From the NCBI GenBank assembly GCA_017397685.1, contig JAFQID010000019.1, forward strand, positions 9,138 to 73,137: a stretch of 64,000 nt of DNA, given 5' to 3'. Source of the stretch: Bacilli bacterium. Lineage in GTDB: Bacteria; Bacillota_I; Bacilli_A; RF39; UBA660. Of the stretch, positions 24,666 to 26,425 are shown piece after piece (position 1 is the stretch's first letter; each line of letters begins with the position of its first letter). Below the pieces are notes generated by a model, which was not told the origin of the DNA, made no database searches, and saw only the letters and a list, made by a program, of their open reading frames with translations. Made by a program: the position numbers and the translations under genes.

Positions 24666-25190
24666 TTAGCTTGCTTTTTTTGCGTTCAAATAATTATATA
24701 ATTGGTTAAACGAAGAATTTAATTCTAAAGATTTGTCTACATCAAAATCATCAATTATATAAGATATAAATTCAAGAACACTTACATGTTCTGGAACAAT
24801 ATTTTCAAACATTTCCTTTGTTATAGCTGAAGTATCAGTATAAGAAAATTTAATTTTATATTTTTTTAAAAGCTTATTACTAATACCAGAAATTATCCAT
24901 GATTCAATTTCAAAAATAGAAATAAATACTTTTTCTTCTTCTAAACAACTATATTTACTTAATATTTTAGCTTTTTTATTAATATTACCATCTTGATCGC
25001 CAACAAATATATAATCACAACCATCAATAGATTTAATGCTTTTAATAAAATTATTTATTTTTTCTACTTTTTTAGTTGAATATTCAACTATATCATATTC
25101 CTGCCCAAGCAATGATAATTTTTTACCAAATAAATTATCAAATACAATTCTATCTCTAGCACCTTCAACAAAAATATACAAATGATTCAT
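24666..25190 (-). CDS. TOPRIM-like small protein (DUF4276/RloB/OLD-nuclease-like)
   Basis: Conserved acidic motifs YIFVEGARD (Glu) and FVGDQDGN (DxD) spaced as in TOPRIM; start overlaps the ATPase stop (TAATG). Confidence 0.55.
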   Translation of the reverse strand: MNHLYIFVEGARDRIVFDNLFGKKLSLLGQEYDIVEYSTKKVEKINNFIKSIKSIDGCDYIFVGDQDGNINKKAKILSKYSCLEEEKVFISIFEIESWIISGISNKLLKKYKIKFSYTDTSAITKEMFENIVPEHVSVLEFISYIIDDFDVDKSLELNSSFNQLYNYLNAKKAS

Positions 25191-26425
25191 TATTTTAATA
25201 TTCCTTCAACAAATAAATCGTCAATACCTAAATCATTTTCTAAAAAAACGGCAATTTTATCATCATTTACTGGCTTAGAAATATTAGAAATTCCCTTCTC
25301 ATTTCTTGAAACAAGAAAGATATCATTTATATCAGCTTCTTTAATTATATATGCATTATGAGTTGTTACAAATATTTGTTTAGTAGCAGAAACTTCCTCA
25401 AGTAGTGATACCACAGTTCCTAATAATTTAGGATGAATATTCCTTTCTGGTTCTTCTAAGATTATAATATCGTTATTACTTTGGAAATATAAAGCAACAA
25501 TTAATGCTAAAATATTAACCGTCCCATCTGAAAGCATATATGATGGAAATTCATTTTTATTGTAGCTTTCTTGTACTTTAAAAAATAATGACTTATTAAC
25601 GTTGCTTTCTACTTTTATATCTTCAACAAAGGGCAAAGCAATTTTAATTAATTTATTTAATTTTTCTTTTTGAGTTTTATTTTTTAATAATTTTTGAATA
25701 ATATTAACTAAGTTAGATCCATCTTCTTCTAATTCATTTCTTGCAACAATACTAGAAGGAGACTTTAAGCTATTTACATCAAAATTATAGATTTTGATTT
25801 TTTCATTATATCTATAAAACATTGATAATGCAGAAAAGAAATTATTAATTATTAAACCATATCTATCAAGAATGAATGTTTTCATATATTTAAGTGTAAT
25901 AAATTCATCACTATCATCATATTTATTTTTTTCAAAATTATTTATTACCTTACCATTAGAATCTTTAACAATTTTAATATCAATTTCACCAACTTTTTCT
26001 TTGTTGTTTTTTTCATATTTTTCAAAAGTAATTATAGCTTTTTCTTCAGTAATTTTATAACCATCGCCTTTTAAATTTGGTTTGATTTTTAATGTATAGT
26101 CTAAATATGAAGGCATATATATCTTTTTTTCTATAGGAAAATATTTTAAACAATTTTTCAAATCATTTACTAAATCAAATTCAACATTTATAATTAAATT
26201 TGAATCTTTTCTGCTATTAGAATTAAACAAAAATTTCAAGCCTCCTTGTAATGAAATCGCATCTTCAATTCCATATTCAACTATATCATTTATAAATTTT
26301 AAAATGTTAACAAAATTTGATTTTCCTGATGCGTTTCCACCAATTATAAAGTTTAAATTATCAACATCTAAATTCATTTTCTTATAACTTTTAAAATTTT
26401 CTACTCTAATTTTAGTTATTTTCAT
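25190..26425 (-). CDS. ABC-type AAA ATPase (AAA_15/AAA_21, OLD/RecF-like)
   Basis: Walker A GGNASGKSN; signature-like LSDGTVNILALIVAL; Walker B IIILEEPE; H-loop VTTHN. Confidence 0.8.
   Translation of the reverse strand: MKITKIRVENFKSYKKMNLDVDNLNFIIGGNASGKSNFVNILKFINDIVEYGIEDAISLQGGLKFLFNSNSRKDSNLIINVEFDLVNDLKNCLKYFPIEKKIYMPSYLDYTLKIKPNLKGDGYKITEEKAIITFEKYEKNNKEKVGEIDIKIVKDSNGKVINNFEKNKYDDSDEFITLKYMKTFILDRYGLIINNFFSALSMFYRYNEKIKIYNFDVNSLKSPSSIVARNELEEDGSNLVNIIQKLLKNKTQKEKLNKLIKIALPFVEDIKVESNVNKSLFFKVQESYNKNEFPSYMLSDGTVNILALIVALYFQSNNDIIILEEPERNIHPKLLGTVVSLLEEVSATKQIFVTTHNAYIIKEADINDIFLVSRNEKGISNISKPVNDDKIAVFLENDLGIDDLFVEGILK

Follow-up and report, generated by a model that had tools for sequence, protein, structure and literature searches.

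A 64,000-nt stretch of the genome of a Bacilli bacterium (contig JAFQID010000019.1; hereafter the window, in whose numbering positions are given unless another locus is named) carries two overlapping genes, encoding an ABC ATPase and a small stand-alone TOPRIM protein, which form a split OLD-like module of the HEC-01 type and are cargo of a serine-recombinase element. On its proteins alone the pair is an ordinary member of a catalogued candidate family, one more of a large and mechanistically uncharacterised group; the added value lies in a covarying structured RNA element, previously undescribed, which is strictly linked to the pair in this gut-Bacilli subfamily and makes it a new variant. 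Taking the evidence jointly, we consider it likely that the locus is a HEC-01-type split OLD-like module on a 6.3-kb element, accompanied by a structured RNA that is most likely antisense and may serve as a brake. Homologous loci that were compared with that of the window are labelled L001-L024, and the coordinates of all features are collected in Table 1.

The pair had been singled out by a first-pass annotation made from the sequence alone, and its description of the genes held. Both open reading frames (ORFs) lie where it had placed them, on the minus strand, with the ATPase stop codon overlapping the TOPRIM start (TAATG, one base being common to both); all of the ABC motifs that it had listed were found in the ATPase, and both acidic motifs in the small protein (FVEGARD, residues 7-13, and FVGDQDGN, residues 62-69). 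The promoter-like site predicted for the operon lies ~70 nt 5' of the ATPase start, just within the left end of the element.

A conserved and covarying RNA block follows the TOPRIM gene

Directly 3' of the TOPRIM stop codon lies a non-coding block of ~110 nt that is far better conserved than the proteins: among 16 unique copies, the mean column identity of the predicted RNA was 81% and that of its core ~90%, compared to ~50% for the TOPRIM proteins. By nhmmer, every close-family locus has exactly one copy of the block and the distant pairs have none; after the distant pairs of L002 and L013, no analogous RNA was detected by nhmmer or by eye. The block was present in 20 loci, and all copies occurred with the pair. 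A scan of 241 million metagenome records for the motif GACTGTTTT-N16-ACAGTCAAACTA yielded six further loci, in which a TOPRIM gene lies upstream wherever the sequence allows, and an ATPase gene too where there is room. The scan of viral contigs for the RNA motif gave 0 matches, and thus no sign of a phage-borne block.

The predicted RNA folds into two helices, P1 and the 11-bp stem 2. In stem 2, 8 of the 11 pairs showed compensatory double changes (14 cells), with 97% paired across the 16 unique copies; none of 500 column shuffles reached these values, and slid registers fell to 30-50% paired. RNAalifold independently predicted the same P1 and stem 2. Because of these compensatory changes we read the block as an RNA and not as a small ORF; the latter was rejected, as plus-strand ORFs judged by eye reach up to ~6 codons and have no ribosome-binding site. 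The invariant GACUGUU, which lies in the loop of stem 2, could possibly pair with the downstream AACAGUC as a pseudoknot, though it weighs against this part of the fold that both P1 and the putative pseudoknot helix are invariant in the 16 unique copies, so that covariation cannot speak to either. A search of the ATPase-TOPRIM mRNA of 13 loci for 7-mers complementary to the invariant RNA motifs found none, and the idea that these motifs act in trans on that mRNA was dropped.

The last 16 nt of the candidate RNA overlap the TOPRIM stop codon and final codons (K-K-A-S), and the 3' arm of P1 together with the adjacent run encodes the TOPRIM tail, ...N-K-K-A-S followed by the stop. In L011 (about 6510-6540) and L016 a different reading frame runs through these nucleotides (...KQAKDCF followed by the stop), and in L023 (6651-6680) they lie ~120 nt past the stop codon, where they are non-coding and still kept. 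Since these nucleotides are kept across frames and even where they are non-coding, the constraint acts on the nucleic acid and not on the protein, and the TOPRIM tail seems to be dictated by the P1 arm and U-tract of the RNA and not by protein function.

At gathering thresholds, an Rfam scan of the window returned three tRNAs only and no family for the block, and a permissive Rfam scan of 24480-24780 gave chance-level matches only (E > 1). No precedent for the RNA element was found in the literature; the IbfA paper, considered as a precedent for an antisense RNA accompanying an ATPase-TOPRIM system, was set aside, the antisense RNAs described in it being of the phage P22 type.

The RNA most likely runs antisense to the TOPRIM mRNA

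The block most likely encodes an antisense small RNA of ~78 nt with its own promoter and U-tract. The promoter-like site that would drive it was the best such match within 24400-26600, and it points into the RNA structure. Of 13 unique copies that were scored, 11 had its geometry (a -35 element, 16 nt, a -10 element, 11-12 nt and then GCAAGC) as their best match, and one copy matched the consensus at 12/12 positions. The sequence of the spacer was variable: column identity was 0.81 for the -35 and 0.76 for the -10 element, compared to 0.64 for the spacer and 0.59 upstream. At the other end, each of the 16 unique copies has a run of five to ten T (T5-T10) directly 3' of P1 on the antisense strand. 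A promoter-like site, a structured RNA and a U-tract therefore make the conserved block gene-shaped. Some observations pull the other way: the -10 element is displaced in a minority of copies (L005, L008, L023 and L024), the G·U asymmetry favours the antisense strand weakly (four U·G cells vs one C·A), and a simple terminator scan of 24400-26600 called nothing, because the stem encloses a long interior.

Some weight, though clearly the lesser, should be given to the possibility that the block is a stem-loop in the sense-strand 3'-untranslated region of the ATPase-TOPRIM mRNA, acting as a stabiliser, a processing site or a protein-binding site, and not an independent antisense gene. P1 and stem 2 can form on either strand, A-U/G-C covariation is blind to strand, and the operon transcript must cross at least the first part of the block; furthermore, the C·A mismatch that L022 would have on the antisense strand would be a G·U on the sense strand, and a minority of copies are without a well-spaced antisense promoter. 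Against it stand the U-run (T5-T10), which occurs directly 3' of P1 only on the antisense strand in the 16 unique copies, and the four U·G cells, which favour that strand as well. The block also ends exactly at the -35-like CGACA, which is at the right spacing to the -10 element in most copies, and a hairpin would not need that. A role at the level of DNA seems very unlikely to us; the block would then be a site of recombination or mobilisation, like an integron attC or an IS200/IS605-type hairpin, that folds when single-stranded and allows the cassette of two genes to move between elements and genomic sites. Stem covariation would fit a DNA hairpin equally, the same cassette is found in differently organised elements, and the block always lies at the 3' boundary of the cassette, beyond which comes a NUDIX gene, attR and the amidase, UDG or a two-component system; however, nhmmer found one copy per locus and no matching repeat or hairpin at the 5' boundary, neither an integron integrase nor a dedicated single-strand transposase accompanies the block, the element has its own att sites elsewhere, and the promoter-plus-U-tract layout would be left unaccounted for.

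The antisense arrangement that we favour resembles that of type I toxin-antitoxin loci in which the antisense RNA overlaps the 3' end of its target, such as txpA/RatA and bsrG/SR4 of B. subtilis. In both cases the message of a potentially toxic protein is overlapped at its 3' end by a small convergent RNA that has a promoter of its own (here a predicted one), and both are found in Firmicutes mobile elements. Unlike in those loci, the putative toxin here is a 174-aa nuclease with an ATPase partner and not a small membrane peptide, and the candidate RNA overlaps the ORF by only ~16 nt.

The small protein has an OLD-like TOPRIM fold

The small protein belongs to a large family of stand-alone TOPRIM proteins. 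An exhaustive profile search returned 1,187 cluster representatives (991 with E <= 1e-10), each of ~165-190 aa, stand-alone and matched over its full length. The close family, obtained by indexed search, comprises 22 homologs and thus 23 members with the window protein, among which E9, G10, D13, D65, D67, E94, E96, W98, G102, K125 and E126 are invariant; of these, E94, E96 and K125 had gone unmentioned in the first-pass annotation. Queried alone, the window protein gave nothing significant in Pfam, PADLOC, NCBIfam or PDB sequences (matches to sCache_3_2, DrmC and ScoD in direct Pfam, PADLOC and NCBIfam scans were dismissed as chance-level). When each of the 23 members was scanned separately, OLD-like_TOPRIM was matched by 20 (best E 1.9e-5), DUF4276 by 12 (best E 7e-5) and DUF3226 by 6 (best E 0.0079); among the PADLOC models, HEC-01B was matched by 20 (best E 5e-8), mad4 by 13 (best E 0.0081) and AriB by one (E 0.0033).

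The family profile matched no PDB sequence even at E <= 10, and so the fold was taken from the predicted structure. The AlphaFold model was confident (pLDDT 91.4), with secondary structure elements in the order β1, α, β2, α, β3, α, β4 and then a helical tail. Its top structural matches were PH0156, TsOLD, GajA, BpOLD and AriB, and in Foldseek the top four were the C-terminal regions of BpOLD and XccOLD (E 2.6e-4, TM 0.54). Judging by order and spacing, E9 (end of β1), D13 (+4), D65-Q-D67 (end of β3), E94-I-E96 (start of the helix after β4) and K125 (helical tail) would be the counterparts of E400, E404, D455-x-D457, T506-x-E508 and K562, respectively, of the BpOLD two-metal site (PMC6755086). 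The TOPRIM protein thus appears to keep a full, putative OLD-type two-metal nuclease site. Several points count against this reading: the BpOLD mapping was made by pattern and predicted secondary structure and not by residue-level superposition; the window protein itself matched OLD-like_TOPRIM at an E of 0.011, with 16.7 bits vs a cut-off of 23.2 bits; and it had no PADLOC match, none to HEC-01B at E <= 1, and reached no curated threshold. The first-pass annotation had held out the possibility of a non-nuclease family; the profile matches of the individual family members and the structure place the protein among OLD-family TOPRIM proteins.

The ATPase resembles SMC/Rad50-type heads of defence systems

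In an alignment of 40 homologs of the ATPase, the residues of its Walker A, signature, Walker B/D-loop and H-loop motifs were invariant or nearly so. The protein matched AAA_21 (3e-25) and AAA_15 (1e-22) in Pfam, and in PADLOC its best matches were to HEC-01A, with nine models (PDLC04176 at 3.2e-54 over residues 1-382), followed by weaker ones to PDC-M07A, AriA (generic models), AbiLi and mad3. Its best NCBIfam match was MAD3 (NF047739; 1.4e-47, residues 3-410 vs 2-427 of 427), at 162.8 bits vs an equivalog cut-off of 420 bits. NCBIfam models of transporters and SMC housekeeping proteins, the families that would have spoken against the first-pass reading, scored only 1e-3 to 1e-5. An NCBI protein annotated 'MAG: AAA family ATPase [Bacilli bacterium]' has the same sequence as the ATPase (100% identity), and bacterial and archaeal homologs number more than 1,250.

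The predicted structure was confident (pLDDT 88.4). The closest structures to the model were the retron Ec83 ATPase (22.6), an SMC head (22.4), the retron Eco7 ATPase (22.2) and PtuA (21.6), with further matches to Rad50 (about 21), AriA (17.2), the retron Eco8 OLD protein (16.9), GajA (16.1) and TsOLD (13.9). This order of structural matches therefore marks the protein as an SMC/Rad50-type ABC head of the defence-associated AAA_15/21 group, nearer in its modelled structure to PtuA-type and SMC/Rad50 heads than to the ATPases of OLD or GajA.

The two genes are paired in every related locus with enough upstream sequence

In every related locus with enough upstream sequence (L001, L002-4, L005-7, L009-11, L013-14, L015-17, L019, L021, L023 and L024), an AAA_15/AAA_21 ATPase of 409-426 aa lies directly 5' of the small protein, on the same strand and with an overlap of 1-4 bases. 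The pairing, whose recurrence in other genomes had been in question in the first-pass annotation, is strictly kept while identity of the small protein runs from 99% down to 34%. The lower end includes L002-4, at 37% identity and with archaeal-looking neighbours, and L013-14, at 34% and with Bacteroidota-like neighbours; L005-7 belong, according to GTDB, to 'Mycoplasma sp. CAG:956' and two metagenome-assembled genomes of uncultured gut Bacilli.

Defence genes are frequent neighbours of the pair, as are HNH and NUDIX (PDC-S07) in the window. Cas9-Cas1-Cas2, an SLFN-like helicase and MazG lie next to it in L001, Abi_2 and a DNA methylase in L009/L010, GmrSD in L005 and Fic in L006. A type I hsdM/S/R operon lies directly upstream of the ATPase gene in L023, with 140 nt between them; in L011 the gap, here to a methylase and a ResIII/RE_endonuc gene, is 80 nt. 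The chromosomal copies beside restriction-modification (R-M) or other defence genes (L001, L005, L009, L011 and L023) fit the habit of being embedded in or adjacent to R-M systems that has been reported for HEC systems.

Among known systems the pair is closest to HEC-01

HEC-01 (Hma-embedded candidate 01) was defined within Hma systems as an ABC ATPase, HEC-01A, with a TOPRIM protein, HEC-01B (bioRxiv 10.1101/2024.01.29.577857). As in HEC-01, the gene of a ~400-aa ABC ATPase is here followed by an adjacent same-strand gene of a small TOPRIM protein with an OLD-like metal site. Unlike HEC-01 as defined, the window pair is not in an Hma system, its element consisting only of recombinase, membrane protein, HNH, NUDIX, TOPRIM and ATPase genes; the small protein of the window itself is too divergent to match HEC-01B at E <= 0.01; and the window subfamily has a conserved structured RNA element, which is undescribed for HEC-01. 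Embedding in Hma is probably not required for membership in HEC-01. The first-pass label, which ran over OLD, PARIS, AbiL and Gabija-GajA, was therefore right as to the split ATPase with an OLD-like TOPRIM partner; as to the exact family it gives way to the HEC-01 of PADLOC, and Gabija, PARIS, AbiL and the fused OLD proteins fall away.

The likeness to MAD3/MAD4 of the MADS system is considerable: the ATPase matches the MAD3 model end-to-end, and the small-protein family matches DUF4276 and, weakly, mad4. In MADS, mad3 and mad4 are needed for defence and mad6-8 are mandatory; the methyltransferase gene mad5 can be deleted only together with mad2 or mad3, and the ATPase is therefore placed on the effector side. 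We rejected MADS itself, as the MAD3 score is far under the cut-off and the element has no other mad genes, including mad6-8 and the methyltransferase.

With OLD and GajA the small protein has in common the TOPRIM fold and the two-metal residue pattern (E, DxD, second-metal acidic residues, Lys), TsOLD, GajA and BpOLD being among its top structural matches. Those are fused ATPase-TOPRIM proteins, and so the pair is neither a class-1 OLD (P2 Old/TsOLD) nor a GajA: here there are two ORFs, with a stop codon between them in every locus examined. The match of the ATPase to the GajA profile was weak and partial (2e-15). Gabija was rejected in addition on account of its partner gene, which encodes the UvrD-like helicase (GajB) that accompanies class 2 OLD proteins, since the UvrD-like gene of the window lies outside the element and is absent next to the pair in all homologous loci. 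This UvrD/helicase IV-like gene (26840-28384, minus strand), beyond the amidase fragment, matches many GajB models of PADLOC at up to 1.7e-45 and could be misread as a Gabija partner; its best match is the NCBIfam DNA helicase IV model, at 291 bits and under the cut-off.

PARIS was rejected, as none of the 23 family members matched DUF4435 at E <= 1; moreover, at 174 aa the small protein is half the size of AriB (~35 kDa), and the AriA matches are to generic AAA_15/AAA_21 models. AbiL was likewise rejected, there being no RloB/AbiLii match in any family member and a partial match of the ATPase to AbiLi (4.7e-24). The Septu protein PtuA and retrons Ec83 and Eco7 differ in the partner, which here is a TOPRIM protein and not the HNH protein PtuB. 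Retron systems with PtuA-type ATPases differ further in that the window locus has no reverse transcriptase and its RNA is short and probably antisense, not a retron ncRNA.

A possible mode of action and its alternatives

An anti-phage role may be ascribed to the window pair from its family and its context. Published tests of HEC-01 disagree: Payne et al. observed no protection against any phage tried (bioRxiv 10.1101/2024.01.29.577857), which tells against such a role, whereas a HEC-01 from a cold seep made E. coli B resistant to one or more of the phages T7, T5 and T4 (bioRxiv 10.1101/2024.09.26.614923). The function of the HEC-01 family is thus barely established.

The model that we favour, with moderate confidence, draws on PARIS, Gabija, OLD and MADS as analogues. 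In it the ATPase would act as sensor and regulator, binding the TOPRIM nuclease, to which it is translationally coupled, and keeping it in check, as AriA does with AriB. A phage-derived cue would cause the ATPase to release or license the nuclease, and the freed two-metal enzyme would then cut nucleic acid, either by nicking DNA, as do OLD and GajA, or by cleaving tRNA, as does AriB, and so stop the infection. The antisense RNA would restrain the expression or activity of the TOPRIM protein in the manner of a type I toxin-antitoxin brake, and if it were short-lived, a phage-induced shut-off of host transcription could lift that brake.

Two alternatives to this role concern the pair as a whole. 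It is rather unlikely that the pair is mainly an addiction or stabilisation module of the mobile element, with the TOPRIM nuclease as toxin and the ATPase, the RNA or both as antidote. Its location on a small integrative element with the recombinase would suit such a module, as would a labile antisense RNA overlapping the nuclease gene, the classic type I toxin-antitoxin layout, and Pfam labels AAA_21 as a putative AbiEii toxin of a type IV toxin-antitoxin system; yet many homologous pairs have no recombinase in their vicinity and belong to defence islands of the chromosome (L001, L009, L011 and L023), and distant pairs are without the RNA altogether. In any case the toxin-antitoxin and anti-phage roles are compatible, as many toxin-antitoxin systems act in abortive infection. 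It is still less probable that the pair is the effector part, orphaned and inactive alone, of some larger system linked to methylation, such as Hma or MADS. Hma systems are indeed the setting in which HEC-01 was defined, no NCBIfam model fits the ATPase better than MAD3 and the pair abuts R-M genes in L011, L023 and L009, but the element has no methylase or helicase, the pair is kept in many contexts without such genes (the window, L002-4, L006, L007 and L013), and a stand-alone HEC-01 was reported to be protective.

A bolder extension of the proposed split module, which we hold to be rather improbable, is a three-part RNA-protein immune system, in which the ~78-nt RNA would bind the ATPase-TOPRIM complex as an antitoxin or sensor, comparable to retron msDNA with PtuA-type ATPases. 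GACUGUU and AACAGUC would then form a protein-recognition surface or a pseudoknot, and loss or cleavage of the RNA during infection would free the nuclease; if true, this would be the first RNA-gated OLD-like system with no need of a reverse transcriptase. Should the RNA control or partner the nuclease in either way, it could explain the failure of HEC-01 when only the ORFs were moved into E. coli, and it would add RNA-based control to the ABC-ATPase/TOPRIM defence class, for which such control is otherwise known only from retron-associated versions.

The pair is cargo of an element inserted in an amidase gene

Carriage on a mobile element, proposed in the first-pass annotation, was borne out by the large serine recombinase and by a split Amidase_3-LysM gene. 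Read on the minus strand, the element runs from attL through the ATPase, TOPRIM, NUDIX, HNH, membrane-protein and serine-recombinase genes to attR, and the pieces of the amidase gene lie on either side, at 26507..26803 and about 19149..20243 (minus strand). The N-terminal piece ends with ...SNHINAGG and the C-terminal one resumes with GDGAEVIY; rejoined, they give a full Amidase_3 domain (positions 1-173 of 174, 95 bits), compared to 68 and 21 bits apart. The element showed no compositional distinctness, the GC content being 0.19-0.30 throughout.

Table 1. Features of the ATPase-TOPRIM locus and its element, in window coordinates
Feature	Position	Strand	Details
ABC ATPase, 411 aa, HEC-01A type	25190..26425	-	Walker A GGNASGKSN 29-37; signature LSDGT 298-302; Walker B/D-loop IIILEEPE 320-327; H-loop TTHN 354-357
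Stand-alone TOPRIM protein, 174 aa, HEC-01B/DUF4276-like	24666..25190	-	putative two-metal nuclease site E9, D13, D65-x-D67, E94-x-E96, K125
Candidate small RNA, structured, ~78 nt; antisense to the TOPRIM mRNA at its 3' end	24604..24681	+ (inferred)	
RNA helix P1	24609-24614 / 24669-24674	+	GCAAGC/GCUUGC
RNA stem 2	24620-24630 / 24644-24654	+	11 bp
Invariant RNA motif GACUGUU	24634-24640	+	
Invariant RNA motif AACAGUC	24658-24664	+	
RNA U7 tract	24675-24681	+	
Promoter-like site, candidate antisense RNA	24570..24597	+	TCGACA-16-TATAAT; consensus scan, 11/12 matches
Promoter-like site, ATPase-TOPRIM operon	26497..26524	-	GTTACA-16-TATAAT; consensus scan, 10/12 matches
Integrated element, ~6.3 kb, within the Amidase_3-LysM gene	20241..26534	.	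AGGT cores; attR 20241-20244, attL 26531-26534
Large serine recombinase	20287..21888	-	Resolvase, Recombinase and Zn_ribbon_recom domains
Multi-pass membrane protein, 251 aa	22147-22902	-	no Pfam or PADLOC match
HNH nuclease, 388 aa	22987..24153	-	Pfam HNH 6e-10; PADLOC mREase_IV 8e-22, HNH region only
NUDIX hydrolase, 131 aa	24153..24548	-	PADLOC PDC-S07 5e-44; Pfam NUDIX

The AGGT core is also found at the junctions in L006, L007 and L008, where related elements with other cargo and another gene order occupy the same amidase site. At least four independent genomes have the Amidase_3-LysM gene interrupted between identical codons (HINAGG | G-D/E-G-A-E-V), namely those of the window (19149-20315 and 26507-26803, minus strand), L006 (5385-6020), L007 (2027-3211) and L008 (987-1277), and the cargo differs among these elements, with Fic in L006 and TnpV in L008. 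The amidase site is a recurrent hot spot for serine-recombinase insertion in the catalytic domain (the Amidase_3 active-site region), and its elements move various defence cargo between uncultured Bacilli of the gut. Excision might restore the amidase gene, as it does the host gene of skin-type elements.

As to the remaining cargo, the carriage beside restriction-like genes noted in the first-pass annotation was confirmed by the HNH gene (type IV-like) on the same element. The 388-aa HNH protein may be a modification-dependent restriction enzyme; its HNH domain is C-terminal, its N-terminal region of ~270 aa is without a family match, and its start overlaps the stop of the NUDIX gene. The NUDIX protein (PDC-S07) is 78% identical to the product of the gene 3' of the pair and RNA block in L009/L010 (L009 4807-5190), the TOPRIM proteins being only 49% identical. 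In most other loci, no NUDIX gene was found 3' of the pair, and the gene may be either an accessory gene or an independent candidate defence gene. At a place similar to that of the membrane protein of the window, the L006 element has a different unannotated membrane protein (1306-2289).

Elsewhere in the window, five direct repeats of ~108 nt (19179-19916, spaced 150-168 nt) correspond to the five LysM domains of the amidase and not to a non-coding array, and three tRNA genes (10283-10353, 31436-31507 and 37196-37267) account for the sole Rfam matches.

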